Source of the DNA: Candidatus Poribacteria bacterium
GTDB lineage: Bacteria > Poribacteria > WGA-4E > JAJDTR01
Reading direction: 5' to 3'
DNA length: 64,000 nucleotides
Assembly (NCBI GenBank): GCA_965222225.1
Contig: CBDCTK010000002.1
Coordinates: 4,102,296-4,166,295, forward strand
Part shown: in pieces, positions 29,009 to 56,274 of the stretch
Layout: the number at the start of each line of letters is the position of its first letter
Position numbering within the stretch: the stretch's first letter is position 1
Made by a program: the position numbers and the translations under genes
Notes under the pieces: model-generated
What the model was told of the DNA's origin: nothing
Seen by the model: the letters and a program-made list of their open reading frames with translations, nothing else
Database searches by the model: none

Positions 29009-29738
29009 TGTCTCGTCTCATCAATCTTATCAACGCAGCCACGGGAAAACCCCTAGCGAGTCAGGTGTCAACTATATATTATCGGTGGGAAAAAAGCAAT
29101 AGAAAAATATGTGCTGTAGTGAGTAGCAAAGCAATCCTCCGGTTGTAGTGGATGTAGAAGTGTGTTATGGCTGCGACGAAATCTATTGGTAAGTCCACTT
29201 CCGTCCGGGATTCAGTTGTAGGAGCATTCATGGCTGCGTTGCGGGACTTGAGAGCAACCCTCGGGACGCCTACGGTTTCTTGTGGATCGACTATCATGAA
29301 CTATGGTATAATTACAGCGTTTCCGCACAGTAGTCATGTCCTTGAATCGTTAATCATGGAACAGAGCAATCGCTGATTCCTTTCCACTGCTCTTCGAAGT
29401 CACAGTCCATAATGTCCTCGAATCGGTTGGTATTGCCAAGAAATCTACCTGAATTCGCGGCGGATCGAAATGCTTCAAACCAGACTGACGATTTAACCCT
29501 CCAATGCACCACGCTTTCAGTCACGCTCGATTTGTAAGAAGCCGGATCGATACCCGTCGCTGATTCTCCTCTGCTCAGAAATTAACAAATCAAAGTACCG
29601 GGTAATGAGGTGCCGTCTTTGTGCACAGTCCCTCCCGTTTCTGAAGCCACGTTTATCTTTCCGGGGTAACTCGGCAGATTAGCATCCGGCTAGCGGTGAC
29701 CTTTACAAGTGATTGCCCCATTTTCGATAGGAGGAATC

Positions 29739-30731
29739 ATGCCGTTAAAATCGAACTACAGACTGCTGTTTTTCGCAGGACTTTTTGCCATTCTATTGAC
29801 TGAGGCGATGGTCGCGAGAAACGCGCTCGCCTTCAACACAAGTCGGATTGTTTTTGCATCCCTGAGAGATGGCAACAAGGAAATCTATGTAATGGATGCC
29901 GATGGAGGAAACCAAGAAAACCTGACAAACAATCCAGCGTATGACGGCCAGCCGGATTGGTCCCCTGACGGGACGAAGATTGCATTCGTTTCCCGCCGAG
30001 ACGGCGTTTCTCAAATCTACGTAATGAACGCCGATGGAAAGAACCCGATTAGACTGACAGATGGACCGCGGTGGAAGCGGGATCCAGACTGGTCTCCCGA
30101 TGGGGGTAAGATTGCATTCACCGTCAACGCAGATTGGAAAAAAGAAGAGTGGTTAGATCATATCGCCGTGATGGATGCTGATGGAAATAATCGTGTGAAG
30201 CATGAAGACCACGCGATGCAGCCATCATGGTCTCCTGATGGGGGTGAGATTGCATTCACATCCTGGAGAGATGATTGGAACTGGGATATTTACGTGATAG
30301 GCGCTGACAGACGGGGGCTTAAAAGGGTGACGCACGATTTAGCGCCTAAATTCAGACCAGCGTTTTCTCCCGACGGGGGACGGATTGCATACATGTCCGA
30401 GCACGAAGGATTCAATCACATCTATGTGGTGGGGGCGGATGGTAGAAATCGGGTGAGGCTTACGCACAATCAAGAGAATCATTTGGACCCCGCATGGTCT
30501 ACCGATGGACAGGCGATTGCATATTATCTCTCGGAGGGCATCTGGCCCGGGAACTTTCGCAGCACGATGCACTTGATGGCCTCCAATGGAAGGTATATTA
30601 GGCAACTTAGCGATGGCCGTAATGCGCGCGATCTCTACCCCGACATTAGCCCGCTAGGATTTGCTGTGTCCCCAGCCGCGAAGTTTGTCACCATCTGGGG
30701 CAAGATCAAAATGCTAACATTGGGTCGTTGA
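29739..30731 (+). CDS. TolB-like PD40 beta-propeller secreted protein, paralog 1
   Basis: AGGAGG 7 nt upstream of ATG 29739 (ORF track starts at GTG 29709); signal peptide; six or more PD40 units (P.WSPDG.KIAF.S.RDG...IYVMDADG.N..RLT); conserved C-terminal tail VTIWGKIKMLTLGR. Confidence 0.75.
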   Translation: MPLKSNYRLLFFAGLFAILLTEAMVARNALAFNTSRIVFASLRDGNKEIYVMDADGGNQENLTNNPAYDGQPDWSPDGTKIAFVSRRDGVSQIYVMNADGKNPIRLTDGPRWKRDPDWSPDGGKIAFTVNADWKKEEWLDHIAVMDADGNNRVKHEDHAMQPSWSPDGGEIAFTSWRDDWNWDIYVIGADRRGLKRVTHDLAPKFRPAFSPDGGRIAYMSEHEGFNHIYVVGADGRNRVRLTHNQENHLDPAWSTDGQAIAYYLSEGIWPGNFRSTMHLMASNGRYIRQLSDGRNARDLYPDISPLGFAVSPAAKFVTIWGKIKMLTLGR

Positions 30732-30785
30732 TGATGTGTGCGACGCGGTTGACACATCCGCTTATTTTCAAAATAGGAGGAACAG

Positions 30786-31763
30786 ATGTCATTCACAGCT
30801 AGACGATTCTTGACTACAATGCTTGTCGTCTCCGTGTTAATCCAGATGCAGTTTGCTAAAAGCGGTTACGCCGCTCAGAGACCCAAGATTGCCTTCAGCT
30901 CTACGAGAGATGGAAACAGCGAAATCTACGTCATGGATATTGACGGACGTAATCATGTAAGACTAACGTATGATCCGGCGATTGACTATGATCCGTCGTG
31001 GTCTCCGAATGGCGATAGGATTGCGTTTGTCTCCAACAGAGACAATGGAGTTGAACAAATCTACGTCTTGGATTCTGACGGACGGAATTTGATGAGACTG
31101 ACAAACGAAGCGGTAAATCGGGAGCCGACGTGGTCTCCCACCGGAGAAAAGATTGCGTACACTCGCAGCAGAGGAGGACGTCAGGTTTGGGTAATGGACG
31201 ACGACGGACAAAACCAGACACGTTTGACTCAAATAGGCAAGAACCTTCACCCAGCCTGGTCGCCTGATGGGGTACGAATTGCCTTCGTATCCGTTAGGGA
31301 CGGAAGGACCGGTATATACGCAATGGATAAGAACGGTAATAATCAGGAAAGAATCACCCTACACATGGTGATTCCGGGCCATCCATCGTGGTCTCCCGAC
31401 GGTAAATGGATTGCGTATGAATCTCTTGACGAAGAAAGCAAATTTCAAATCTTTCTCGTGAAAACCGATGGCAGCGGTCTTTCGAAAAGGCTAACACACA
31501 ATCCACCGAATAAATGGCGTCCTGCATGGTCCCCCGATGGCGACACGATTGCCTACGTGTCAGTAGAGCCCTTTCCCTTCCAAAATATGACGATTCACTT
31601 GATGACTGCCCGTGGAAATCATCTTAAACAACTCAGTGAGGAGCACAATGGTTCGGATAACGATCCCGATTGGTATGCTCCGGTAGGATGGTCGGTGTCT
31701 CCCGCCGCAAACTTCATTACCATGTGGGGCGAGATTAAAAAGCCAACATCGGCTCTCCGTTGA
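30786..31763 (+). CDS. TolB-like PD40 beta-propeller secreted protein, paralog 2
   Basis: AGGAGG RBS, signal peptide, PD40 repeats, tail ITMWGEIKKPTSALR. Confidence 0.75.
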   Translation: MSFTARRFLTTMLVVSVLIQMQFAKSGYAAQRPKIAFSSTRDGNSEIYVMDIDGRNHVRLTYDPAIDYDPSWSPNGDRIAFVSNRDNGVEQIYVLDSDGRNLMRLTNEAVNREPTWSPTGEKIAYTRSRGGRQVWVMDDDGQNQTRLTQIGKNLHPAWSPDGVRIAFVSVRDGRTGIYAMDKNGNNQERITLHMVIPGHPSWSPDGKWIAYESLDEESKFQIFLVKTDGSGLSKRLTHNPPNKWRPAWSPDGDTIAYVSVEPFPFQNMTIHLMTARGNHLKQLSEEHNGSDNDPDWYAPVGWSVSPAANFITMWGEIKKPTSALR

Positions 31764-31813
31764 TGTGTACGGCGCGCTTGAAACTGCAGCTTTTTTTAAA
31801 AAAGGAGGAACAG

Positions 31814-32790
31814 ATGTCATTCAAAGCTAGACAACTGACGGGGACAGCGCTTGTCATCTCCCTGCTAATCCAGATGCACATTGCAGCAAGCAGTTACGCC
31901 TCTCGCAGAACCAAGATAGCCTTCACCTCTACGCGTGACGGGAATACTGAAATTTATGTCATGGATGGTGACGGGAGTAACCAGAGAAGAGTAACGGTAA
32001 ATCCAGCAAGTGATGAATATCCGGCATGGTCTCCCGACGGCAAAAAGATTGCCTTTGTTTCCAATAGAAACAACGTAAACAAAGATCACAAGCAAATCTG
32101 GGTGATCGACGCCGACGGGTAGAACCCGATTAGACTGACGGACGGGTTGGTGGACTCTTATCCGGATTGGTCGCCAGACGGCACGAAAATTGTGTACGAC
32201 GCCCATCTTCATCCAGAGGAACATCATGTAGCCCCCGCCGGGATTACTGTAATGGATGCGGATGGGAACAACAAGAGACTACTTACGGGTGAAGGCGCAC
32301 ATGCGTCGTGGTCGCCCGATGGAAAACGAATAGCATTTGTCTCCGGTAGAAATGAAAAAGTCAGTCACATTTTCGTAATGGATGCCGACGGACAGAATCA
32401 GATAGAGTTAACGCATGACTTCGTGCATAAACGTCTGCCATCATGGTCACCCGACGGGAAGCGCATCGCGTATGTGGGCGATAACGTGATTTGGGTGGTG
32501 GATAGCGACGGAGCGAACCAGAGGCAACTCACCAATATAATTACGGAAGAACACCCTACATGGTCACCGGACAGTGAATCCATTGCTTTTCACTCTTTTA
32601 CAAGGGATCGTGGAACTGGGATTTACATGGTGGATGTAACTAACGGCGCTGTCGACGTTTTGCAAGTTGATCCCGCGTTCTTTAATCTCGACCCGATTGG
32701 CTCTATCCCGGAGGACTCTCCGTTTCGCCGGAAGGTAGCCGGATTACAATTTGGGGCAGGATGAAGAGTACCGCGCTCAGCCTCCGGTGA
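31814..32790 (+). pseudogene. TolB-like PD40 paralog 3 with in-frame TAG (32120..32122, Lys in paralog 4) and a 1-nt deletion near 32690
   Basis: IDADG*NPIRLTDG vs paralog 4 IDADGKNPIRLTDG; conserved tail ITIWGRMKSTALSLR only readable in the +1 frame after CCGATT vs CCGGATT difference. Confidence 0.7.
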
Positions 32791-32952
32791 GGGGTGCGCT
32801 TGGTCGGTGGCAGTTAACGTTGTCTGAACTGTGATTCATGAGAATACGGGATTACCTTGATTGTACGTGATTAGTTGCGAGTCATGAGGCGACTATTCCG
32901 CATCTTGCAGCCACTAGGAATTAGGGAAAAAACCTAGTCTATAAGAAAAAAG

Positions 32953-33105
32953 GGATGAACGGAGTGAACAGCGAGTGGGATGGACTATCGCACGGGATTT
33001 GCTATCGATCAAGTGAGCGAAAAGCGAACGCGATAGCCAGTCTTGCTCCTTATTCAGTCGCTTGATCGATATTCACTCACTTGACCGATAGAGGTCCCTT
33101 GCGCT
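32953..33105 (+). repeat. modular dispersed repeat, composite copy with internal inverted words
   Basis: GATCAAGTGAGCGAAAAGCGAACGCGATAG ... CGCTTGATCGAT ... TTCACTCACTTGACCGATAGAGGTCCC. Confidence 0.5.
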
Positions 33106-33175
33106 AAAAACTGTCGGTTGATGTCTAGAATATTGTAATTCGCATATTAATTTTGCTCTGACTAAGGAGGAAAAA

Positions 33176-34162
33176 ATGACATTCAAAGCTAGACGCTTGT
33201 CCGTGGCAGCGCGTGTCATGTCTCTGTTAATACAGATGCACATTGCAGAAAACGGTTACGCCTCTCGCAGAACCAAGATCGCCTTCTCCTCTATGCGTGA
33301 CGGGAATTTGGAAATTTATGTCATGGATGGCGACGGGAGAAACCAGAGAAGAGTAGCGGTAAATCCGGCAAGGGACGAATATCCGGCATGGTCTCCCGAC
33401 GGGAAAAAGATTGCGTTTGAATCCAATCGAAACAATGTAAACAAAGATCACAGGCAAATTTGGGTGATCGACGCCGACGGGAAGAACCCGATTCGACTGA
33501 CGGACGGGTTGGTGGACACTCATCCGGATTGGTCGCCAGACGGCACGAAAATTGTGTACGACGCCTATCTTGTTCCAGAGGACCATAATTTAGCACCCGG
33601 TGGGATTGCTGTAATGGATGCGGATGGGAACAACAAGAGGTTAGTTAAGAATGCAAGAGGCTCACAATCGTCCTGGTCGCCCGATGGAAAACGAATAGCA
33701 TTTATCGCCGGTAAAAATCCTGGTGACGACTCTCAAATTTACGTAATGGATGTCGACGGACGAAATCGGTTGCAGTTAACGCATGACTTTGTGCACAAAC
33801 GTTTGCCATCATGGTCACACGACGGGAAGCGCATCGCGTATGGTGGCGACAACGTGATTTGGGTGGTGGATAGCGACGGAGAGAATCCGAGGCAACTCAC
33901 GTGGCATGTTACGGAAGAACACCCTACATGGTCACCGGACAGCGAATCCATCGCGTTTCACTCTTTTGGAAGGGATCCTGGAATTGTTGGGATTTACACG
34001 GTGGATGTAACTATCGGCGCTGTCGACCCTTTGCCAAGTGATCCCGGCTTCCAGAATTACTATCCGGATTGGCTCTATCCCGGAGGACTCTCCGTTTCGC
34101 CGGAAGGTAGCCAGAATACAATTTGGGGCAGGATAAAGCAATTGGCGGTCAACCTGCGGTAG
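33176..34162 (+). CDS. TolB-like PD40 beta-propeller secreted protein, paralog 4
   Basis: AGGAGG RBS, signal peptide, PD40 repeats, tail NTIWGRIKQLAVNLR. Confidence 0.75.
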   Translation: MTFKARRLSVAARVMSLLIQMHIAENGYASRRTKIAFSSMRDGNLEIYVMDGDGRNQRRVAVNPARDEYPAWSPDGKKIAFESNRNNVNKDHRQIWVIDADGKNPIRLTDGLVDTHPDWSPDGTKIVYDAYLVPEDHNLAPGGIAVMDADGNNKRLVKNARGSQSSWSPDGKRIAFIAGKNPGDDSQIYVMDVDGRNRLQLTHDFVHKRLPSWSHDGKRIAYGGDNVIWVVDSDGENPRQLTWHVTEEHPTWSPDSESIAFHSFGRDPGIVGIYTVDVTIGAVDPLPSDPGFQNYYPDWLYPGGLSVSPEGSQNTIWGRIKQLAVNLR

Positions 34163-34305
34163 TTTGCACACCGAATCGGTGAAATCGAAGGGATTGCGGC
34201 GTGCCGCTCCGCTACCTAGTTCATTGGTGGTACATCCGTGCGGCAAGCTTACCACATTAAAGGAGGGAGAACATGCGAATCAAGTCGATAAATAAACGAG
34301 AGTAT

Positions 34306-34713
34306 TCACACAAAGATAGATAAGGCAATCTTCTGATACCGACGGAAGACCTCTGGGTTGGTCAAAGCAGTCCATAACTTCATGGCATTGTCCACCATCT
34401 CAAGTTTCTTGGATACTATTTTGGTGCGGCGTGTGAATCGTCCAAGATGATGGCGTGTATTGCTGTTATCACGTTCGACTGTTGCTGTCCCTGATTTCCC
34501 GATGTGATGACGCTCCGCAGGAAGTACCTTGGCAAACGCTTCCCAATTGTCAGTGTAATACTGGCAATCACTTAAGTGTTTCACTTTGTCGAATAGCCGT
34601 CTGAAGGTATCAGCATCACGACCACCGATAACCCAGGCAACGGTTTTGCCTGTTTCACGAGAAACTGCTTTGTGAATCCATCTTTTGTTTTTTTTGACCC
34701 GATAAAATGCCAC
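34306..34713 (-). CDS. insB: IS1-family InsB-like transposase ORF, expressed by -1 frameshift from insA
   Basis: KKNKRWIHKAVSRETGKTVAWVIGGRDADTF resembles IS1 InsB [26 protein letters not shown]; stop lies inside the terminal IR as in IS1. Confidence 0.7.
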   Translation of the reverse strand: MAFYRVKKNKRWIHKAVSRETGKTVAWVIGGRDADTFRRLFDKVKHLSDCQYYTDNWEAFAKVLPAERHHIGKSGTATVERDNSNTRHHLGRFTRRTKIVSKKLEMVDNAMKLWTALTNPEVFRRYQKIALSIFV

Positions 34714-35024
34714 ATCTCATCAAATTCCAATTCACGGGTATTGATTGGAATCTCAGGCTCCGACAACAGGGCTGCTTCCTTTGCAGGCCATTTTTGAACA
34801 GTACTTGGCGATACATTAAACAAGTTGGCAATAGTGCCGTAAGACGCTTTTGCAAGCGAGTAGAGAATTACTGCAAAAGCACGCTTGATGGTGGTTTGAG
34901 GGTTGGTTCTCTCGTCTCCCTCAACGAAATTATAACCGCACGTTTTACAACGGTATCGCTGTTTGGAACGAACGAATCCGTTTTTCGTGACTTCCGAACT
35001 TTGACAGTTCTTACAGTTTGACAT
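34581..35024 (-). CDS. insA: IS1-family InsA-like protein (zinc finger + HTH)
   Basis: CKNCQSSEVTKNGFVRSKQRYRCKTCGYNF zinc finger then HTH, then ELEFDEMWHFIGSKK at the slippery run, as in IS1 InsA/InsAB'. Confidence 0.7.
   Translation of the reverse strand: MSNCKNCQSSEVTKNGFVRSKQRYRCKTCGYNFVEGDERTNPQTTIKRAFAVILYSLAKASYGTIANLFNVSPSTVQKWPAKEAALLSEPEIPINTRELEFDEMWHFIGSKKTKDGFTKQFLVKQAKPLPGLSVVVMLIPSDGYSTK
34688..34695 (-). promoter_or_regulatory. programmed -1 ribosomal frameshift site (A8 run, TCAAAAAAAAC) between insA and insB
   Basis: minus strand UCA AAA AAA ACA in the insA frame becomes AAA AAA AAC AAA AGA UGG in the insB frame after -1 slip; same A6C-type site as in IS1. Confidence 0.6.
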
Positions 35025-35083
35025 AATATCTCCTTCCTGACCTTTCTGGTTAGTTAGAAGAATTATATCATAAATCTATCTAT

Positions 35084-36067
35084 ATGGCAATACTCTCAAG
35101 TAAACTTCTGTTTTTCATGGGACTATGCACATCCTTGGTGAGTGGGGAGCTATTGGTGGGAACCGGATTTACCTCGCACCACAAACCACAGATTGCATTC
35201 ACTTCTATAAAAGATAGGAATGCTGAAATCTATGTGATGGATGCCGATGGAGAAAACCAAATCAGGTTAACAAAACATGTGGCGAGTGACCGTCATCCCT
35301 CGTGGTCTCCCGATGGGGAGCGGATTGCATTCACTTCCAATAGAATTAGTATTGGCGGTGAAATGTACGTGATGGATAGCGATGGAAAGAATCTGATTAG
35401 GTTAACAAATGGAGAATGGGACACAAATCCAGCGTGGTCTCCTGACGGAAAAAAGATCGCCTTCGAGTCCTCTCCAGCGAAAGGTAATTCTGAGATATAC
35501 GTGATGGATGCCGATGGAAGAAATCAGACCCGACTAACAGATAGTCCGAGGTATGACGGACACCCGTCATGGTCGCCCGACGGTCAAAGGATTGCATTCG
35601 TATCGCAAAGGGGTGGTTTCAGGATTCAAATCTACGTGATGGACAGCAACGGCGAGAATCAGACGAGATTAACACACGATGGCGGGAATAAGCGTGAGCC
35701 CTCATGGTCTCCTGACGGGCAAAGCATCGCTTTCATGCTCAACAATTTTGCCTCGATTCAAATCTACGTGATGGATAGCGACGGCAAGAATCGGACAAGG
35801 TTAACAGACGGAAGGCACGACTGGAGTCCAGCTTGGTCGCCGGACGGCGAGATGATTGCATACGAGTCGTGGATAGGGGAAGACTTCCTTAGCAAAATCC
35901 ACTTGATGACTGCCGACGGAATGTACCTCAAACAACTCAGCGACTTGCACGAACGTGGAGATTACGATCCTGACTGGTTTGATCCTGCATCGCTTGGTGT
36001 GACTTCCGTAGGCATCACAATTACAATCTGGGGCAGGATCAAGAGATTAGCGTTGAACCTCCAGTAA
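35084..36067 (+). CDS. TolB-like PD40 beta-propeller secreted protein, paralog 5 (start codon lies inside the IS1 terminal repeat)
   Basis: signal peptide MAILSSKLLFFMGLCTSLVSG, PD40 repeats, tail ITIWGRIKRLALNLQ. Confidence 0.7.
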   Translation: MAILSSKLLFFMGLCTSLVSGELLVGTGFTSHHKPQIAFTSIKDRNAEIYVMDADGENQIRLTKHVASDRHPSWSPDGERIAFTSNRISIGGEMYVMDSDGKNLIRLTNGEWDTNPAWSPDGKKIAFESSPAKGNSEIYVMDADGRNQTRLTDSPRYDGHPSWSPDGQRIAFVSQRGGFRIQIYVMDSNGENQTRLTHDGGNKREPSWSPDGQSIAFMLNNFASIQIYVMDSDGKNRTRLTDGRHDWSPAWSPDGEMIAYESWIGEDFLSKIHLMTADGMYLKQLSDLHERGDYDPDWFDPASLGVTSVGITITIWGRIKRLALNLQ

Positions 36068-39345: not shown

Positions 39346-40215
39346 GTGCACCCGATTCGGCACGTTGCCGAATCTAGTGTGCGGTCGAATAAAAAGGTAC
39401 AGACAGTTATTCCAAGAGTTGAGAATCATTCACCTATATCTCCGGCAGCCACGCAGAATGGTTTTCCCATAAACCAAATCTTAGCCGGTGATTGTCTAAA
39501 TGTACTTCCTTCCCTTGCTAGCAATGTTTTTGATTGTTGTATCGCCGATCCCCCGTTCAATATGTCACAAAAAAAAGGATTGGGCTGGGCGTTCAGTTCC
39601 CATATTACGATGCAGGAAGGGTGGGATATCTTCTCAAAAGACGAATATTCCCAGTTCACACTCGATTGGGTCTCCGAGGTTCTGAGAGTCGTCAAGCCGA
39701 ACGGGAATATCTTTGTTTTCGGATCGTTTCACAGTATTTTTACGTTAGGATTTATCCTTCAGAACATATTTGATCGGCGCATTATCACCCAGATTGTATG
39801 GTATAAGCCGAATGCACAGCCCAATATCACCTGTCGCATGTTTACGGAATCAACTGAATTCATTATTTGGGCAGTTAACAATGAGCGTAAAAAGGCAAAA
39901 AACTGGACATTCAATTATCATGAGATGAAGGCGATGAATAATAACAAACAGATGCGAAACATGTGGGAAATCCCGCTGACGAAGCCGTCTGAACGAAAAT
40001 ACGGAAAACATCCTTCACAGAAACCGCTAGCAGTGGTTGAACGGCTAATTTTGGCGGGCACGAACGAAGACGACCTGATTCTAGATCCGTTTTCCGGAAC
40101 CGGAACAACCGGAATTGGTGCACAAAAGAACAATCGAAAATGGGTGATGATTGAGAAAGAAGAATTCTATAATCAGATTGCTCGACGGCGACTTGAAGAG
40201 TTAGCCGGCGAATAA
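39346..40215 (+). CDS. type II DNA methyltransferase, beta-class (N6-adenine or N4-cytosine)
   Basis: motif IV DCCIADPPFNM precedes motif I ILDPFSGTGTTG (beta permutation); markedly AT-rich relative to flanks; stop overlaps the start region of the endonuclease gene. Confidence 0.8.
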   Translation: MHPIRHVAESSVRSNKKVQTVIPRVENHSPISPAATQNGFPINQILAGDCLNVLPSLASNVFDCCIADPPFNMSQKKGLGWAFSSHITMQEGWDIFSKDEYSQFTLDWVSEVLRVVKPNGNIFVFGSFHSIFTLGFILQNIFDRRIITQIVWYKPNAQPNITCRMFTESTEFIIWAVNNERKKAKNWTFNYHEMKAMNNNKQMRNMWEIPLTKPSERKYGKHPSQKPLAVVERLILAGTNEDDLILDPFSGTGTTGIGAQKNNRKWVMIEKEEFYNQIARRRLEELAGE

Positions 40216-40242
40216 TGAGTGTTCATTATAGAGGAGTTTGAC

Positions 40243-40854
40243 ATGCAAAGGCAGGAAGCACTCTCGAAACTGTCAGAGCTTATCAACCAAGACCTGCGTT
40301 TTCTTGCGAATCAATATGAAGTAACGGTTTTCAAGGGAGACAAACCAAATAAGGGTTGGGCATGGCACGTTCTTGAGCGTCATCTTAACTTACCAATCAA
40401 CTCTGCTCAAGCACCAAACTTTGGTTCTTGGGAATTGAAGGTAGTTCCTCCGAAGTATCTAAAAAGTGGAAAGTTGACAATCAAGGAAACAATGGCAATT
40501 ACGATGATTGATGCCTACAATGTTGAACATACCGATTTCCAAGATAGCCATCTGTTCACCAAACTCAGGAAACTAATAGTTGCTGCCAGAATCTGGGAGA
40601 GTCAGCAGGAAGAACGATCTGTGCTTCATATTGTGACAACCTTTGACCTTGACAATCCCAAGATATACAGTCAAATTAAAGCGGATTATGATTTAGTCAG
40701 AGAGACAATCCGCACGAAAGGTTTTTCGGCTTTGACCGGAAAAATGGGGGTATATATTCAACCAAGGACAAAGGGGCCTGGACATGGTAGTATGTCACGA
40801 GCGTTTTACGCAAGAACCACCTTCCTTAAGCAGTTCATTTTTCCGTCGCTTTGA
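40243..40854 (+). CDS. MutH/Sau3AI-family endonuclease, predicted restriction enzyme partner of the methyltransferase
   Basis: NKGWAWHVLERHLNL...NFGSWELKVVP...KETMAITMID...GVYIQPRTKG...RAFYARTTFLKQF parallels E. coli MutH DKGWIGVLLEIWLG...LGVELKTIPV...ETTFVCVAP...EYLQIRPKAA...RGFYLKKNF including the D...E-x-K core; GAGGAG RBS before ATG 40243. Confidence 0.7.
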   Translation: MQRQEALSKLSELINQDLRFLANQYEVTVFKGDKPNKGWAWHVLERHLNLPINSAQAPNFGSWELKVVPPKYLKSGKLTIKETMAITMIDAYNVEHTDFQDSHLFTKLRKLIVAARIWESQQEERSVLHIVTTFDLDNPKIYSQIKADYDLVRETIRTKGFSALTGKMGVYIQPRTKGPGHGSMSRAFYARTTFLKQFIFPSL

Positions 40855-40968: not shown

Positions 40969-42927
40969 ATGGACACAAAACCAACCTTCCAGACCATTAC
41001 CCAGAGTAAAACTTCAACTCCAGTAGATCCTGTAGTAGCGGCGGAGGTTGGTCTAGAGAGGGGCAAAATCGGCAAACTGCATCTGGAGCGGAATGGCGCA
41101 GCCATCCCACCCTTGTCAACACCGATTTTGTACCCCGTAGTTTCATTCATGACCGGTTCGACGCCGCGCGGCGGGGGTTTGTGGAAGTACCTACTTCGAG
41201 ATTTCATGAAGAACGATGTGCCGATGTTGTCGCAAGTCCTGCACTTTCTGGATTTCCCTATCAACGGTAAGAGTTTGGCGAAATGGCGAAGTAAAACCGT
41301 TCGTGAGTGGTATCGTGAGGTCAATGGACCATACGAAGCGCCGCTCCTGCTCGATTCCGGCGGATTCAAACTGCTTTATAACACGGGGCTAGATCTCTCT
41401 GAGTTCGGCATTAACGCAGAAACGGAAGCGGATGATATACTCGCACTCCAGGACGACATGGGTGGGGACATGATTGCTTCTCTGGACTACCCGCTTCCAC
41501 CGGGGCTGGATCGATCGGAAGCCGAAAGGCGGATGAACCGCAGCCTGAAAAATGCCTTTAGGGTAGCGGAATGCATCGCCGATCGCCGTAACCCGCCATA
41601 TCTGTACATCTGTTGTCATGGACAATCCCGGGTTGACATTGAAGAGTACGTCCAGAAGGTTTTTGACAGGCTTCTGGGAGTCTTACCATCGTTTGGACTT
41701 GCGGTTGGCTCTCTCGTACCGCTGCGAGGAAAAAAGGATTCGGAAGTATTGGAGCGGATATTGGGAGTGGTAAACGGAATACCGGAATCGGAGCGACATC
41801 GGACGCCGATTCACGCCTTCGGCGTTTCAGGTGAACTTGCCCCCATACTCGCTTACATGGGAATTGATAGCTTTGACAGCACAAGTTACATTCAAGCTGC
41901 TCGCGGCCTCAACTATTCCCATCCCGAAACGCGGCGGAAGCAGAAAATTATGGAGTTAGACGAAACGGTGTGCACTTGCCGCATCTGCCGCGAGGTGTCG
42001 CTTGATGAAATGCACCTTGCCCTGTCGGATGCAGTAAGTTATAGGAAGACTTCAACCGGGAAGTACAAGAGCGAATACTATGCCGCCATCGCTTTGCACA
42101 ACTTTGAGATGGAAGCGGGGTTACTTTCCCGTATGAAAGAAGCTATTGAGAGCGAAGACTCGCTTGAAGAGTTGGTTCGTCACGCGCAGGTAGGACGAGG
42201 CATCAATAGAGCAGTAGGCTGGCTGCTTGAGAATGATGAGATTTTTGCCAGTAAGATGGCGAAAACTGTCTTTGAGGCCACCGATTCACGGGGCAAATCC
42301 GCCCTTCCAATTGGGCGGAATCCGTATCAACTCGAACTCTTCACGGGATCCTTGACAGCGGAAGGAAATGGCGAGGAATCGCGATCAATCTCGCTCAATT
42401 ATACACCTGATTCCTTTTCCATTCCCGATGATTATGCTCCCCCTAAGGACAAAGACGTACTGCTGGTTATTCCGTGTGCCGGGAAAAAGCCGTATTCACT
42501 GTCGCGCACACACGCTATTGTCAATACCAAACTTCAGACGGCCTTCGGTGAAGCGGGAACTTCCATCCACAGAATTACCCTTTCGGGACTTTACGGACCC
42601 GTGCCGGAGGAATATGAATCTGAAGAAGCTGTCCTCCGATACGATTTTCAGTTGTCACCGAGAAATACCGCGAAAATACAGCTCGGTGCGGATCGGCTCT
42701 GCGCCTATCTGGAGAAGTATGCCAATCACTACAAGCTGATTGTCGGATACGCGACAAGCCAAGCTTATCGCAAAGTGTTTGAACTCACCCGATCCAGACG
42801 GTCAGACTTTGTTTTGCTGCCGACGAAACCGAAACAGAATCGACTCACCGAGTTTTTCCGGCACGTTCACCTTGATGAACTCGTTGAGGTTTTGTCAACT
42901 GTAGCGCAACCACTGAGCAAAGAATAA
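40969..42927 (+). CDS. tRNA-guanine-transglycosylase (TGT) superfamily protein with 250-aa C-terminal extension; candidate DNA/RNA 7-deazaguanine base-exchange enzyme
   Basis: LLLDSGGFKL (TGT DSGGFQ Asp), DMIASLDYPL (substrate Asp), YMGIDSFDST (nucleophile GxDxFD), zinc site VCTCRICREV ... IALHNF (CxCxxC...HN); C-terminal 400-652 carries a PCAGKKPYS motif of unknown function. Confidence 0.75.
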   Translation: MDTKPTFQTITQSKTSTPVDPVVAAEVGLERGKIGKLHLERNGAAIPPLSTPILYPVVSFMTGSTPRGGGLWKYLLRDFMKNDVPMLSQVLHFLDFPINGKSLAKWRSKTVREWYREVNGPYEAPLLLDSGGFKLLYNTGLDLSEFGINAETEADDILALQDDMGGDMIASLDYPLPPGLDRSEAERRMNRSLKNAFRVAECIADRRNPPYLYICCHGQSRVDIEEYVQKVFDRLLGVLPSFGLAVGSLVPLRGKKDSEVLERILGVVNGIPESERHRTPIHAFGVSGELAPILAYMGIDSFDSTSYIQAARGLNYSHPETRRKQKIMELDETVCTCRICREVSLDEMHLALSDAVSYRKTSTGKYKSEYYAAIALHNFEMEAGLLSRMKEAIESEDSLEELVRHAQVGRGINRAVGWLLENDEIFASKMAKTVFEATDSRGKSALPIGRNPYQLELFTGSLTAEGNGEESRSISLNYTPDSFSIPDDYAPPKDKDVLLVIPCAGKKPYSLSRTHAIVNTKLQTAFGEAGTSIHRITLSGLYGPVPEEYESEEAVLRYDFQLSPRNTAKIQLGADRLCAYLEKYANHYKLIVGYATSQAYRKVFELTRSRRSDFVLLPTKPKQNRLTEFFRHVHLDELVEVLSTVAQPLSKE

Positions 42928-42933
42928 GTTGAT

Positions 42934-43428
42934 ATGTACCAATATCGAATGGCGAAAACAGACGATTTGAAGCGAATTGTGGAAATCGAGATGCGATCGG
43001 AGATCCAATCCAATCCATCTTGTCGAGAGAAGCATCAGATTGGCTTCGATACTCGCTACCGTTGGTGGACCGATTATTTTAATCGCACCAGCCACACCGA
43101 AACGATCAGTGTTCATCGGACGATATACGTTGCTATGATTAAGCTGAATATTGTCGGATACATCGCCGGACATCTGACCTCTCAACCCGATCCGCAAGGC
43201 GAGATTCAGTCGATGAACGTCCTGAAACCGCAGTGGGGAAAAGGAGCGGGAGTAAACCTGCTTAGGAATCTGGCAAGGTGGTTCAAGAAGCAAGGCGTCG
43301 CGTCCGTCTGTGTGCATGTGCCAGAGCATAGCCCATATAAGGAATTCTATGCCCAACACGGTGCTACGGCTGTGAATGACTCCCTTTGTCGGTGGGATAA
43401 CATCGGCGAGGTGACAGAAGAATCGTAA
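42934..43428 (+). CDS. GNAT-family N-acetyltransferase
   Basis: QSMNVLKPQWGKGAGVNLLRNL is the acetyl-CoA-binding motif A (Q/R-x-x-G-x-G/A); 164 aa. Confidence 0.7.
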   Translation: MYQYRMAKTDDLKRIVEIEMRSEIQSNPSCREKHQIGFDTRYRWWTDYFNRTSHTETISVHRTIYVAMIKLNIVGYIAGHLTSQPDPQGEIQSMNVLKPQWGKGAGVNLLRNLARWFKKQGVASVCVHVPEHSPYKEFYAQHGATAVNDSLCRWDNIGEVTEES

Positions 43429-44531: not shown

Positions 44532-45254
44532 ATGGAGTTGTACCCGATTCGCCACGGTCAGTCGACCAACAACCGTGGAGATGCGCGTGTCTCTGATCCA
44601 TCGCTGACGGAGCTCGGGAGGCAGCAAGCGACCAGAGCAGGACTGGCGCTGAGAAACCTGGGTATCACGCGCCTTTAATGTAGTGCGATGCTTCGTGCGG
44701 TGCAAACCGCCACAATTGTTGGAGAACACTTGGGACATGCCCCGCATGTTTTCGTGGGAATTCACGAGTGGGGCGGCGTTTGGGAAGATCGGGTTGATGG
44801 TGGTATGGATCAACTGCCGGGACTAACACGATCGCAGTTGCGCGATGCCTGTCCGACAGCCGTGTTGCCAGATGATGTAACGGACGAAGGTTGGTGCATT
44901 CAAGCATTCGACGCCCACGAACTAGCGTACGGAGGGAACGATGAACAAATGCTGGGCTTGGCACACGAAAATTGCCTTCGATTCATCGCCCACTTGGACC
45001 ACCACCACCACGCAAGAGAACATGAAAAGGTCGGGGCAATTTTGCACGGTGGATCCGGATCAATGCTGCTCGGTGCATTTTTTGGTTTGCTACCAAATGA
45101 AACTCAAAATCGCTTCCCGCACAACAACGCCGGAATCACGAAAATTATTAGAACTCCGAAGTATACCCAGTTGCTTTATCAAAACCAGACCAGCCATCTA
45201 TTGAAAGAGAGTGAATTCGACCTAGAAGCCAGTTCTCCCATGGTAATTTGGTGA
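44532..45254 (+). pseudogene. histidine phosphatase (phosphoglycerate mutase family) tandem copy 1, in-frame TAA at 44676..44678
   Basis: MELYPIRHGQSTNNRGD (RHG catalytic motif) ... ITRL*CSAMLRAVQ where copy 2 has VTRLYFSAMLRAVQ (TAT to TAA). Confidence 0.7.
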
Positions 45255-45408
45255 AACGAGTACTGAATGACCAACACCGCCTAGACGGAATTATTTGAAA
45301 AAACAGTGCATCGAATCCCCACCTGAAACAGATGCTAAAATCCGATACCGTGATAAAGCAGTGCATGATTGCCGGAACCGTTTTCAAGCTGAAAGGAAAT
45401 AACAGATT

Positions 45409-46131
45409 ATGGAATTGTACCTAATTCGCCACGGTCAGTCGACCAACAACCGTGGAGATGCGCGTGTTCCTGAGACACCGCTGACAGAGATCGGAAAGCA
45501 GCAAGCGGACAGATCGGGACGGGCGTTGAAGAACTTGGGTGTCACGCGCCTTTATTTCAGCGCGATGCTCCGTGCGGTGCAAACCGCCACAATTGTTGGA
45601 GAACACTTGGGACATGCCCCGCATGTATTCGTGGGAATTCACGAGTGGGGCGGCCTTTGGGAAGATCGGGTTGATGGTGGTATGGATCAGCTACCGGGAC
45701 TAACACGATCGCAGTTGCGCGATCTCTGTCCAAAAGTGGTGTTACCAAATGATGTGACAGACAACGGTTGGTGGTTTCCATCGTCTGTCAATGATAAACC
45801 GGTATCGGCATGGGACTATGCGCAGATGCTCCAATTGATTCACAGAAACTGCCGTGGGTTCATCGCGCATTTGGAGCAACACCACGGTGGGGAAGCTGAG
45901 AAGATCGGAGCAATTATACACGGAGGCTCCGGCTCAATCCTAATCGGAGCCCTGCTAGGGATGCCACTGCCAAACGAATTTCCAGAGCGCTTCCCACACA
46001 ATAACACCGGCATCACGAAAATTCGAAGAACCCACGAGCACACACAGTTACTGTATCATAACCAAACCGGTCATCTACTGAAGAATTGTGAGTTCAGTCA
46101 AGAAGCTAGCTCCCCATTACTAACATGGTGA
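45409..46131 (+). CDS. histidine phosphatase (phosphoglycerate mutase family), tandem copy 2, intact
   Basis: MELYLIRHGQSTNN...; 240 aa; about 85% identical to copy 1. Confidence 0.75.
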   Translation: MELYLIRHGQSTNNRGDARVPETPLTEIGKQQADRSGRALKNLGVTRLYFSAMLRAVQTATIVGEHLGHAPHVFVGIHEWGGLWEDRVDGGMDQLPGLTRSQLRDLCPKVVLPNDVTDNGWWFPSSVNDKPVSAWDYAQMLQLIHRNCRGFIAHLEQHHGGEAEKIGAIIHGGSGSILIGALLGMPLPNEFPERFPHNNTGITKIRRTHEHTQLLYHNQTGHLLKNCEFSQEASSPLLTW

Positions 46132-47770: not shown

Positions 47771-48244
47771 ATGACCATGAAGAGACGAAAGACAGTATAC
47801 CTTGCGAATCCCTACGGTTTCTCGGAGCAACAGCGGGAATACCTATTACCAGCCCTGATTCAGGCACTGGAAGCTATTGGCTTAGAGGTATGGGAGCCGT
47901 TTGAGCGAAACAACAATGAAGACATTTCGTTACCCGGCTGGGCATACCGAATTGGACAACGAGACAAGAATGATGTCGTTGAAGCGGACGCGATTTTTGC
48001 CGTCGTGAACGGTGTCCCGCCCGACGAAGGGGTTATGGTCGAATTAGGAATCGCGATTGCGCTCGGAAAGCCCACATTCCTATTCCGCGACGACTTTCGG
48101 GGTGCCGCCGATTCCGATGAATACCCACTCAACCTCATGGTCTTCACTGGCTTACCCCGCTGTGGATGGGAGCGGTACTACTTCAAATCGATAACTGAGA
48201 TTTCATCGCCCGACAAAGCATTGGCGCCTTGGGCAAAAATATAG
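47771..48244 (+). CDS. nucleoside 2-deoxyribosyltransferase-family protein
   Basis: TVYLANPYGF ... DAIFAVVNG ... MVELGIAIALGKPTFLF matches the NDT fold signature (YLAGPFF ... E.G.A.A.GKP). Confidence 0.7.
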   Translation: MTMKRRKTVYLANPYGFSEQQREYLLPALIQALEAIGLEVWEPFERNNNEDISLPGWAYRIGQRDKNDVVEADAIFAVVNGVPPDEGVMVELGIAIALGKPTFLFRDDFRGAADSDEYPLNLMVFTGLPRCGWERYYFKSITEISSPDKALAPWAKI

Positions 48245-53907: not shown

Positions 53908-54993
53908 TTGAGAATTGAAAACGTCGACTTTCCCAAACCGTTGATAGAAGCCTTGCATGACAACGAACTCGTAGTGTTCGCTGGGGCTGGCGTTTCAATC
54001 GGTAAACCTGCCCGTCTGCCCAGTTTCAGATCGTTGACCAATATTATCGCCGAAGGTACCGGGAAAACGGCGCGCGATGGCGAGACGCCTGAGCAATTCC
54101 TCGGAAGATTAAAAGACCAAGGCGTAAAAGTGCATGTGCGCGCTGCGCGACCGCTTTCTCAAGAAGGTTTGCAGGCTACGGCCCTTCATCAAGATCTTCT
54201 TAGACTCTATCCTAAAACAGCGCCCGTTCGCCTCGTCACCACTAATTTCGATCCCCTGTTTGAGCAGGCAGCCTTTGAGCAGGCAGCCGAGGAAATATTC
54301 GACAGTTCGCCAGAAGTATTCCGGGCACCCGCGCTGCCTTTGGGACGTGAGTTCGACGGCATTGTTCATGTTCACGGTTCAGTCCGTCGCCCTAACGAGA
54401 TGTTACTTACGGATAGAGATTTTGCTCGCGCTTATCTGACCGATGGCTGGGCTCGACGCTTTCTCGTCGAACTTTTCAGTAATTTCCGAATCCTCTTTGT
54501 TGGCTACAGTCATGACGACACGATTATGAATTATCTGGCCCGCGCGCTTCCTGCCGGTTCGGAATACCAACGTTTCATTTTGACCGGTTCCGAAGACAAG
54601 AAACCCTCTGATGATTGGCGTTCACTAGGGATTGAACCGATAGTCTACCCTCAGGCTAACGAAAATGACTATAGTGAACTCGACACAAGCATTCATGGCC
54701 TCGCCGAACTTGTACAGCGACGCGTTGTTGTTTGGAATGATGAAATAACCAATATAGCGCAAGTTCCGCCTCCCACTGACGAGAATAAGGCAGATCTCAT
54801 TGAGTACGCGCTAAGCGATGAAGTAAACACAAGGTTCTTTGCAAAAGCGGCTTCAGATCCTGATTGGATTGACTGGCTCGACGAGCGTGGACATTTGACC
54901 GCGCTATTCCGCGACGATATACTCACCGCGCAAGCCAAAACCTTGTCTTGGTGGTTGGCAGATCGATTTCTTTTCGGAATTAGTAGCTTGTAG
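53908..54993 (+). CDS. SIR2-like (DHS-like NAD-binding, SIR2_2 type) domain protein; candidate NADase defence effector, probably the 5' part of an IS-disrupted longer gene
   Basis: LVVFAGAGVSIGKPARLPSF (GAGxS), VTTNFDPLFE (TTNYD) and VHVHGSV (catalytic His) are the three SIR2_2 hallmarks; ORF ends abruptly 20 bp before an IS1595 element. Confidence 0.75.
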   Translation: MRIENVDFPKPLIEALHDNELVVFAGAGVSIGKPARLPSFRSLTNIIAEGTGKTARDGETPEQFLGRLKDQGVKVHVRAARPLSQEGLQATALHQDLLRLYPKTAPVRLVTTNFDPLFEQAAFEQAAEEIFDSSPEVFRAPALPLGREFDGIVHVHGSVRRPNEMLLTDRDFARAYLTDGWARRFLVELFSNFRILFVGYSHDDTIMNYLARALPAGSEYQRFILTGSEDKKPSDDWRSLGIEPIVYPQANENDYSELDTSIHGLAELVQRRVVVWNDEITNIAQVPPPTDENKADLIEYALSDEVNTRFFAKAASDPDWIDWLDERGHLTALFRDDILTAQAKTLSWWLADRFLFGISSL

Positions 54994-54999
54994 CTTTTA

Positions 55000-56215
55000 G
55001 ACTGACGACAAACATAAAACTTGGTACCCTGTCGTAAATCTTTTCGTCACACGTAGATGTCCATAGTGACTATTCTTCTCGTAGGAGTTTGCTATGGACA
55101 TTTTGAATCTTATGAAAGAGTTTCCAAATCAAGAATCTTGTCTCAGATTTATAGAGGAAAAACGTTGGAAGGACGGTGTTTGCTGTATCCACTGTGGCAG
55201 TGAAAAAGTTGGACGCAAGAACAAAAACGACATTACTACTGGTTGGAATTGCTACGATTGTGAATCTAGCTTTTCGGCTACAGCAGGAACCATCTTCCAT
55301 GGTACCAAGATACCTCTCCAGAAATGGTTTTTGGCTATCTCAATTCTTTCCAATGCCAAGAAAAGCATATCGAGTTGTCAGCTTGCTCGTGACTTGGACA
55401 TGAATCAAAAGTCCGCTTGGTATATGGCAATGCGCCTCCGTGAGAAAATGAGTGATAGTGATGAATTGCTGAAAGGGATAGTTGAAGCGGACGAAACCTA
55501 TGTCGGCGGCAAACCCAGAGCAAAATCTAAGAGAGGTAGAGGCACAAATAAATCTCCCGTCATCGGCGTAGTCGAGAGAGGCGGTCGGGTGGTTGCTAAA
55601 TTCATGAAGGTTCTATCTGGTGAAAATATCAGAGAATTCATCCTTAGCAATGTCTCACCCGATGAGTCTATTCTTATGACTGATGAATTTCGCTCTTACA
55701 ATAGTCTGGACGAAGATATCGAAAGACATGTTATCCATCACCAAGAGAGATATGTTTCTGAGGACGGCGTAACTCACACCAACACCATCGAGTCGTTTTG
55801 GGCTTGTGTCAAGAGGTCATTCTACGGAACGCATCATCACTACAGCAAGAAGTGGCTGCCACTGTATATCATGGAGTCTTGCTGGAAATATAATCGCAGA
55901 AAAGATGATGAGATTTTCATAAGATTTTTTGATGAATGCTTCACCTGAGCCACATGAATTGTTTGGCTATCGGTATATTCTGTCAACGACAACATCATGG
56001 TGTGCTGAAAATCCCATAGTGTTGGAAATTAAAATCCCGCAGATAACCCGCAATGCTCCCGCGAGCATGTACAAACGCTTGGTCAACATGATATGCCTCC
56101 ATTTCTCTCTTATAGAGATGTATTTTAGTGTGAATCAAGATTCCGAACACTGTCTAAAATGATTGTACATTAAGAAGAGAAAAGCAAGCAAATCGACCAA
56201 AAAGCAGTTAACTAC
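55000..56215 (+). mobile_element. IS1595-family insertion sequence (boundaries approximate)
   Basis: single transposase gene with N-terminal CxxC zinc ribbon and E-x-DETYVGG motif; I could not define the terminal inverted repeats by eye. Confidence 0.55.
55094..55948 (+). CDS. IS1595-family transposase
   Basis: CIHCGSEKVGRK...CYDCESSF zinc ribbon; EADETYVGGKPRAKSKRGRG; DDE-type C-terminal region. Confidence 0.8.
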   Translation: MDILNLMKEFPNQESCLRFIEEKRWKDGVCCIHCGSEKVGRKNKNDITTGWNCYDCESSFSATAGTIFHGTKIPLQKWFLAISILSNAKKSISSCQLARDLDMNQKSAWYMAMRLREKMSDSDELLKGIVEADETYVGGKPRAKSKRGRGTNKSPVIGVVERGGRVVAKFMKVLSGENIREFILSNVSPDESILMTDEFRSYNSLDEDIERHVIHHQERYVSEDGVTHTNTIESFWACVKRSFYGTHHHYSKKWLPLYIMESCWKYNRRKDDEIFIRFFDECFT

Positions 56216-56274
56216 TAAGTCCCTTTCTTTTCAACCATGCAAACAGACTTTTCCTGCTCATTGGTAAGCATAAT

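Follow-up and report, generated by a model that had tools for sequence, protein, structure and literature searches.

What reaction, and on which substrate, is carried out by a protein that begins as a tRNA-guanine transglycosylase (TGT) and continues into a long C-terminal region of another kind? The question is raised by a gene in a 64,000-nucleotide stretch of contig CBDCTK010000002.1 (hereafter, the window) from a Candidatus Poribacteria bacterium, a member of a group of sponge symbionts. An initial annotation of this DNA described the product as a TGT-like enzyme with extensions at both ends, and suggested that it acts on DNA instead of tRNA or couples a second chemical step to base exchange. 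Judged from its sequence, the protein combines a TGT guanine-exchange domain with the archaeosine synthase (ArcS) catalytic core. We consider it on balance probable that this fusion is a bifunctional 7-deazaguanine enzyme, namely an insertase placing 7-cyano-7-deazaguanine (preQ0) in DNA, fused to an ArcS2-like domain that amidinates the nitrile.

A transglycosylase joined to the archaeosine synthase core

The two halves of the protein were recognized by different Pfam families. TGT (PF01702) matched residues 123-405 (E 4e-16; 59.6 bits against a cut-off of 26.3), and DUF5591 (PF17884) matched residues 487-610 (E 3e-13); the general family TIGR00449 (tgt_general) was also matched above its cut-off (66.1 against 47.6 bits). 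The scores for the equivalog models were far below the respective cut-offs, namely, 76.9 against 350 bits for TgtA (NCBIfam TIGR00432), 77.4 against 440 bits for ArcS (NCBIfam NF040592) and 31 against 306.75 bits for the bacterial queuine/preQ1 tRNA TGT (TIGR00430), and the PADLOC profile of DpdA (PDLC02807) gave a weak match of 16 bits. Among proteins of solved structure, the nearest in sequence were the archaeal transglycosylase ArcTGT of P. horikoshii (1iq8) and AF0587 (2q07), a DUF5591+PUA protein for which the alignment was limited to the DUF5591 half (135/270 residues). Compared with the solved structures, the family profile matched ArcTGT (E 5e-35), AF0587 (E 1e-12), bacterial TGTs (E about 1e-11) and, more weakly, DpdA (7ui4; E 7e-4).

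The AlphaFold2 model, built from a 42-sequence family alignment, was confident (pLDDT 90.3, pTM 0.90) and consists of two domains with a disordered linker between them (Table 1), the first of which has the TIM-barrel and zinc-subdomain fold of the TGT superfamily. The 60-aa N-terminal extension claimed initially shrinks on alignment: D129, which pairs with D95 of ArcTGT through the common DSG(G/S)F motif, is only 34 residues deeper in the chain, and the N-terminal excess is about 30 residues. This includes a lineage-specific insert of 17 residues (residues ~13-30), which is modelled with low confidence and is missing from orthologues of 615-635 aa. Modelled strands (residues 6-12, 33-41, 44-51 and 53-57) occupy the site of the N-terminal sheet of TGTs.

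The C-terminal region had been regarded as a new domain, unlike the C1, C2 and PUA modules of archaeal enzymes. The motif quoted in support of that claim, VLLVIPCAGKKPYSLS (residues 497-512), overlaps PC-X3-KPY-X2-S-X2-H, the published signature of DUF5591, which is the C1 catalytic core of ArcS (PMC10516641, PMC5699537). Thus, C1 is present and the domain is a known one, as both Pfam and the signature indicate. The other part of the claim stands, in that neither C2 nor PUA was found in the protein: there is no Pfam PUA match and the chain stops after the DUF5591 fold. Canonical ArcS and ArcTGT both carry C2 and PUA as tRNA-binding domains (PMC5699537).

Conservation of both active centres

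All core motifs listed in the initial annotation are in place (Table 1), and alignment with 1iq8 confirms that the protein retains all three Asp residues of the TGT active site as well as the Cys3-His zinc site of the superfamily, the zinc ligand H377 being assigned by motif position. V250 pairs with V198 of P. horikoshii ArcTGT. The base-reading Gln of bacterial tRNA TGTs (Q203 in Z. mobilis) is replaced by an invariant His217. In DpdA, the base is read with His181 where tRNA TGTs carry Gln (PMC10164549), and H217 falls at about position 181 of the PADLOC DpdA profile, in agreement with such a role.

An exhaustive search of 1.84 billion representatives yielded 104 clusters below the threshold of E <1e-30, many of them full-length (600-700 aa); shorter members (500-546 aa) also combine TGT and DUF5591 without PUA. 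The family is small and spans bacteria and haloarchaea. In an alignment of 87 full-length members drawn from 90 loci (28-92% identity), D129, S130, D173, H217, D303, H377, N378, C503, K507, P508 and Y509 are invariant (87/87), S512 is kept in 85/87, and the zinc cysteines C335, C337 and C340 are kept in 82/87, 68/87 and 85/87, respectively. Because the invariant residues belong to TGT as well as to ArcS, both active centres are under selection. Five Candidatus Poribacteria genomes contain orthologues with 69-92% identity, which marks the window as Poribacterial, and the pairwise ratio of nonsynonymous to synonymous substitution rates (dN/dS) against the orthologues is 0.07-0.16, indicating that the gene is constrained and functional. 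Together with the invariant catalytic residues, this value rules out a pseudogene or relic.

ArcS adds an amine onto the nitrile of preQ0 that has already been inserted (PMC11298593). Given this chemistry and the invariance of C503, K507, P508 and Y509 across the 87 members, the coupled second step suggested initially is very likely. Family members are currently named "tRNA-guanine transglycosylase" or "7-cyano-7-deazaguanine tRNA-ribosyltransferase" in databases, and this tRNA-transglycosylase annotation may be misleading. A full-text literature search for "DUF5591" returned a 2023 phage paper alone, in two versions (PMC10516641), and separate searches on ArcS/DpdA fusions yielded nothing further; a search with the AF0587 fragment for canonical ArcS sequences gave no matches.

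Dpd- and BREX-like islands outside Poribacteria

To place the family in its genomic context, we retrieved 80 metagenomic loci (numbered with an L prefix), called and clustered their open reading frames (ORFs) and annotated the clusters. At least one neighbour from a characteristic set was present in 62 of the 83 non-Poribacterial loci, the set comprising QueC/D/E, a preQ0 transporter, DpdJ-, DpdK- or DpdH-like proteins, a second TGT, HATPase_c_3, DUF6884 and BREX-like genes (counts in Table 1). The TGT gene adjoins PglZ-like, BrxC-like and HerA genes in L016, L071 and L073, and the contig of L007 resembles a conjugative element, with helicase, DUF1998-like and phospholipase D (PLD) genes adjacent. 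Cultured carriers include Natrinema sp. SYSU A 869, with one plasmid-borne fusion gene, and Haladaptatus sp. YSMS36. The RefSeq plasmid of the latter (NZ_CP119784.1) has the same kind of island, in which two fusion genes are accompanied by a short TGT, DUF6884 and PLD proteins and a helicase, all under generic annotations. In the single-TGT cassettes of L006, L009 and L060-L067 there is no other TGT, so that the fusion protein must perform base exchange there.

Several further features of these loci were recorded. In a recurrent cassette, the TGT-DUF5591 gene is followed by a gene for an unannotated 255-275-aa protein and one for a DpdH-like ATPase of ~970 aa, with overlapping start and stop codons (L006:11129-14787, L008:3212-6975 and L009:2202-5596; also L060-L067). 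Two divergent fusion genes lie within one locus in L008, L024 and L025. A DUF6884 protein of 153 aa is encoded between the fusion gene and the second short TGT (L027-L047, L094; for example, L029:5697-6158). It also matches DpdC (PADLOC) and YaaA/DUF328 (Pfam), and hhalign aligned DUF6884 with DUF5591 at a probability of 72% (E 3e-5), matching SCSxxK to PCSxxKPY. ArcS, DpdC and DUF6884 may thus share a common nitrile-modifying fold.

The Poribacterial clade

In the window, the fusion gene is preceded by genes for a CcrM-like DNA methyltransferase and a MutH/Sau3AI-like protein and is followed by a GNAT acetyltransferase gene (Table 1). We compared 14 contexts of the Poribacteria clade at ≥61% identity, window included. 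The methyltransferase gene is directly upstream in 9 of them (the window, L001-L004, L090, L091, L095 and L096), although the flanks differ in some. The MutH-like gene is present in 5/14 and is reduced or lost in the rest. Its repeated loss, with the methyltransferase and TGT genes retained, is the decay pattern expected if the latter two are modification genes. QueD adjoins the fusion gene in 3/14 contexts (L092, L093 and L097), and 3 of the 14 lack the methyltransferase, the MutH-like gene and QueD alike. The link to DNA within the Poribacterial window is indirect, consisting only of the adjacent methyltransferase and MutH-like nuclease, and the functional link between these genes is putative.

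The MutH/Sau3AI-like protein has Asn at the position of the catalytic Asp of MutH (APNFGSWELK against 'eqDF...ELK'), a conserved replacement shared by the window, L001, L004 and L090. The Asp is presumably D70 of the E. coli protein. The MutH-like protein may be catalytically altered, or may be a site-recognition protein. In L092 and L097, a gene for a 128-aa QueD (PTPS) ends 2 bp ahead of the fusion gene (L092:9613-9999, L097:5613-5999), and a radical-SAM gene resembling that of lysine-2,3-aminomutase is located 2.4-3 kb downstream. The GNAT gene is syntenic in L001-L004 only, the four closest genomes. It is possibly an operon partner in these closest relatives, and we rejected it as a general partner since it was also missing from the recurrent families among 146 unclassified neighbours. 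The membrane protein encoded next to it was considered as a preQ0 transporter and is treated here as unrelated: it matches no family, and the one context examined had no deazaguanine genes. Its homologues (~41-50% identity) are widespread, with source names of Cytophagales-type Bacteroidota and Planctomycetota. A promoter and terminator scan of 38.9-44.8 kb gave counts no better than those in shuffled sequence and carries no information on operon structure.

Table 1. Features of the fusion gene and its surroundings in the window, and gene families recurring near the fusion gene in non-Poribacterial loci
Feature	Position in window, or number of loci	Strand	Basis or remark
TGT-DUF5591 fusion ORF, 652 aa, ATG start	40969..42927	+	ORF list; Pfam TGT + DUF5591
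TGT domain, residues ~30-436: N-terminal beta-sheet, TIM barrel, zinc subdomain, trailing helices	41056..42276	+	
DSGGF motif, residues 129-133; D129, general acid/base (ArcTGT and DpdA D95)	41353..41367	+	role from PMC10164549
D173, base-recognition Asp (ArcTGT and DpdA D130), within SLDYPL 171-176	41485..41487	+	1iq8 alignment
H217, aligned to ArcTGT Gln169; DpdA equivalent His181	41617..41619	+	1iq8 alignment
D303, nucleophile (ArcTGT D249, DpdA D256), within GIDSFDS 298-304	41875..41877	+	1iq8 alignment
CTCRIC, residues 335-340; zinc ligands C335, C337, C340	41971..41988	+	aligned to C279/C281/C284 of 1iq8
H377, fourth zinc ligand (by motif position), within IALHNF 374-379	42097..42099	+	
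Disordered interdomain linker, residues 438-468	42280..42372	+	pLDDT <50 at 438-440 and 442-468
DUF5591 domain, residues ~470-645: ArcS C1-type catalytic core, Rossmann-like alpha/beta	42376..42903	+	
ArcS signature, P502-H515, reads PCAGKKPYSLSRTH (P-C-AGK-KPY-SL-S-RT-H)	42472..42513	+	motif definition PMC10516641, PMC5699537
Beta-class N6/N4 DNA methyltransferase, CcrM-like	39346..40215	+	Pfam N6_N4_Mtase E 7e-50; PADLOC MTase_II
MutH/Sau3AI-like endonuclease homologue, between methyltransferase and TGT genes	40219..40854	+	Pfam MutH, NCBIfam Sau3AI
GNAT acetyltransferase, starts 6 bp past the TGT-DUF5591 stop	42934..43428	+	Pfam Acetyltransf_1
Multi-pass membrane protein, 352 aa	43445..44503	+	no Pfam/NCBIfam family
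DEAD helicase, ~1300 aa	28 loci		PADLOC DpdJ, E 1e-53
PLD protein	13 loci		PADLOC DpdK, E 4e-11
P-loop ATPase, ~970 aa	17 loci		PADLOC DpdH, E 2e-13; unannotated 255-275-aa protein just before in 12 loci
QueC	16 loci		Pfam
Radical-SAM QueE	13 loci		Pfam
QueD	13 loci		Pfam
Vut_1/YhhQ preQ0 transporter	13 loci		Pfam
Second short TGT, ~415 aa, full catalytic set	~23 loci		Pfam TGT; sequence
HATPase_c_3 ATPase	27 loci		Pfam
DUF6884/DpdC-like protein	22 loci		Pfam; also DpdC (PADLOC), YaaA/DUF328
PglZ-like, BrxC-like, HerA genes	4-8 loci		Pfam

Relation to known systems

We class the fusion with the systems that modify DNA with 7-deazaguanines, namely Dpd and phage DpdA/ArcS2, and not as a categorically new system. 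Its closest functional parallel comes from Vibrio phage nt-1, whose DpdA2 alone, without DpdB, inserts 2'-deoxy-preQ0 (dPreQ0) into E. coli plasmids, the addition of the stand-alone ArcS2 leading to 2'-deoxyarchaeosine (dG+) (Cui et al., NAR 2023, PMC10516641). Both consist of a TGT-family transglycosylase and a DUF5591-only core without PUA, and neither involves the DpdB ATPase. In contrast to the phage pair, the fusion is a single, cellular polypeptide with a TGT half of the ArcTGT lineage rather than DpdA2, and its ArcS motif is intact, whereas that of phage nt-1 is degenerate.

With the Dpd system of S. Montevideo (PMC10164549), the fusion would share the general scheme of preQ0 insertion into DNA followed by nitrile chemistry. 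The two are also alike in the genes near family members, which include those for preQ0 synthesis and, with distant members only, those for DpdJ-, DpdK- and DpdH-like proteins, and in His217, the counterpart of DpdA His181. However, there is no DpdB, and a fused DUF5591, which would be expected to turn the nitrile into an amidine, takes the place of DpdC (DUF328), by which an amide is made from it; the hidden Markov model of DpdA matches with just 16 bits, the N-terminal strands are retained, and the Poribacterial copy has no Dpd restriction genes nearby.

Like the euryarchaeal ArcS and ArcTGT (PMC11298593, PMC5699537), the fusion has a TGT-like N-terminal domain followed by C1/DUF5591 with the complete signature; ArcTGT is the best sequence match of its TGT half and AF0587 is the nearest solved DUF5591 structure. 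Unlike them, it has no C2 or PUA, scores far under the equivalog cut-offs and was not accompanied by RaSEA among the scanned window ORFs. In addition, its TGT half has the full catalytic set, so that one protein could perform both steps.

A further comparison is offered by BRC (BREX-related capture) systems, described in a preprint (bioRxiv 10.1101/2025.10.09.681413) that did not appear among the results of our full-text DUF5591 search. The available part of that preprint speaks of a "TGT", sometimes fused to GNAT, with dPreQ0 alone as the expected product, and does not mention DUF5591. The PglZ-like, BrxC-like and HerA genes of L016, L071 and L073 recall these systems, as does the GNAT gene 6 bp after the TGT gene in the window. 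The BRC set, however, comprises PglZ, BrxC-like DUF6079, a STAND NTPase, DUF4007 and HerA, and the window has no PglZ, BrxC or HerA.

A proposed reaction and its alternatives

In the reaction that we propose, the TGT domain would swap guanine in DNA for free preQ0 by double displacement, as the conserved residues suggest, with D303 as the nucleophile, D129 as the acid/base and D173 and H217 reading the base; V250 would suit a nitrile substituent rather than an aminomethyl group. The tethered DUF5591 domain, by homology to ArcS and phage ArcS2, would subsequently attack the nitrile of this preQ0 with an amine (ammonia, glutamine-derived or lysine). The resulting amidine would be either 2'-deoxyarchaeosine or an adduct of the preQ0-lysine type; an amide is also conceivable as the end product. 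The ArcS of T. kodakarensis can pass lysine even to the preQ0 nucleoside, giving a product that ArcTGT cannot exchange back (PMC11298593). Since the ArcS step has been shown to block the reverse exchange in this way, fusion of the two domains could make insertion a one-way step with no need for a DpdB-type ATPase. For most lineages, we envisage that the enzyme supplies the self mark in restriction systems of a Dpd-like or BREX-related kind. In Poribacteria, it would have departed from defence islands and become vertically inherited, usually after a CcrM-like methyltransferase and a decaying MutH/Sau3AI-like nuclease, as might be the case for the modification gene of a restriction-modification module or for an orphan epigenetic mark.

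DNA is favoured as the substrate over tRNA, as had been suggested initially, because PUA and C2 are absent, the His is of the DpdA type, and relatives reside in islands of Dpd- and BREX-like type that also carry genes for preQ0 supply. Several observations nevertheless weigh against this proposal, beyond the indirectness of the DNA link in the window. The TGT domain is nearer to tRNA TGTs than to DpdA in both sequence and fold, the N-terminal strands being modelled where TGTs have a beta-sheet lid, which is lacking in DpdA (PMC10164549). No Que, Dpd or BREX-type genes (including dpdB, dpdC, dpdD-K, PglZ, BrxC and HerA) were found within the 64-kb window, and no RaSEA-like or other radical-SAM ORF was found among the window ORFs scanned (21.4-58.6 kb). 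The absence of PUA is compatible with an RNA substrate, given that bacterial TGTs also lack this domain and act on tRNA. The closest non-Poribacterial relatives, L012 and L015 (50-52% identity), have housekeeping surroundings (ABC transporter, sigma-70 factor, Lon protease), and for this reason the solo clade could differ in role from the clades of defence islands. Finally, no relatives were detected in viral contigs with the family profile or in a phage genome collection by tblastn, and a phage origin of the fusion family is accordingly unsupported.

Some of these points would suit an enzyme of tRNA or other RNA, that is, an archaeal-type archaeosine pathway in one polypeptide, which Poribacteria would have acquired from archaea and which would insert preQ0 into tRNA and convert it to archaeosine (G+) or preQ0-Lys. 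Such an enzyme, which we hold to be plausible but rather unlikely, would explain why the TGT domain matches ArcTGT best (E 5e-35) and TgtA far better than DpdA (76.9 against 16 bits), and would be in line with the lid-like strands, with vertical inheritance under strong constraint, with housekeeping-like neighbours (ArgRS and RsfS in L091, Pth and RsgA in L092, sigma-70 and Lon in L012) and with the archaeal-type phosphopantothenate synthesis enzymes reported from Poribacteria (PMC7883664). It is at odds with the lack of the C2 and PUA domains of canonical ArcS and ArcTGT (PMC5699537), with the invariance of His217 at the Gln position of tRNA TGTs, and with the location of the majority of the family in defence islands of Dpd- or BREX-like type, frequently plasmid-borne or on conjugative elements; moreover, the usual Poribacterial partner is a DNA methyltransferase with a restriction-type nuclease. 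Alternatively, the protein might be a finishing enzyme of the ArcS/DpdC type, its TGT domain merely binding or flipping preQ0 that a separate DpdA-like enzyme has put in DNA. Canonical ArcS also has a TGT-like N-terminal domain (PMC10516641), and in ~23 loci the second short TGT (~415 aa, full catalytic set) adjoins the HATPase_c_3 ATPase, a pair that could be the true insertase. Yet a second TGT is missing from the vicinity of the gene in many cassettes and in all Poribacterial loci examined, and the complete conservation of the HN motif, the nucleophile and the Asp serving as acid/base, with the zinc cysteines kept in 68-85 of 87 members, is hard to square with a role in binding alone. We consider this division of labour improbable overall, conceivable where a second TGT is encoded and unlikely elsewhere. 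Least probable is a protein or small-molecule substrate, as in the TGT-like Cap10 of CBASS, which conjugates deazaguanine to a cyclase: the matches to nucleic-acid TGTs are much stronger than the similarity to it, a CD-NTase or Cap9-type partner is missing from every locus, and the surrounding genes encode DNA helicases, PLD nucleases and PglZ-type proteins.

Insertion of preQ0 into DNA followed by amidination thus remains our preferred reading. A more far-reaching version of it, which we regard as doubtful, holds that Poribacteria, haloarchaea and other carriers have an archaeosine-type base, either 2'-deoxyarchaeosine or an amidine of preQ0 with lysine, in their own chromosomal DNA, placed by a single self-sufficient polypeptide in which the second domain replaces the DpdB-type ATPase in making exchange irreversible, and that the Poribacterial mark has outlived its restriction partner to become a vertically inherited epigenetic base beside CcrM-type methylation. 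In Poribacteria, this base might be further acylated by the adjacent GNAT.

Other features of the window

The plus strand at 53908-58626 encodes a SIR2_2-domain protein (53908-54993) and a DUF4020 protein of 783 aa (56275-58626), with an IS1595 transposase between them (55094-55948); the region resembles a defence locus in its own right, with an insertion sequence element inside it or at its edge. A gene of the nucleoside 2-deoxyribosyltransferase family (47771-48244, plus strand) lies 5 kb downstream of the fusion gene and is syntenic in L001, L002 and L004; it has no established link to TGT. On the minus strand (21416-23341), two GH36 (melibiase) ORFs abut with one in-frame TGA between them (22286-22288), next to intact paralogues of 666 and 678 aa; the split pair could be a pseudogene, a sequencing error or a case of recoding. 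Five tandem paralogous genes for PD40/WD40-like beta-propellers occupy 29709-36067 (plus strand), and the array is bigger in L002. A truncated histidine-phosphatase ORF (44688-45254) lies beside a full-length paralogue (45409-46131) on the plus strand, a local duplication (44688-46131) that is also present in L004.

Implications

In the literature, dG+ in DNA is reported from phages only, and cellular Dpd systems make dPreQ0 and dADG (the 2'-deoxynucleoside of 7-amido-7-deazaguanine). An archaeosine-type base in the DNA of a cellular genome has no reported precedent, and the fusion most likely installs one. If this is true, it would be a new cellular DNA base, produced by a fused insertase-amidinotransferase of cellular defence islands that has become fixed across a symbiont phylum. 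The enzyme would provide a one-gene tool for placing 7-deazaguanine amidines in DNA and a test of the idea that a coupled second chemical step substitutes for ATP-driven insertion, and the modification could explain the "self" mark of some Dpd-like and BREX-related (BRC) systems.

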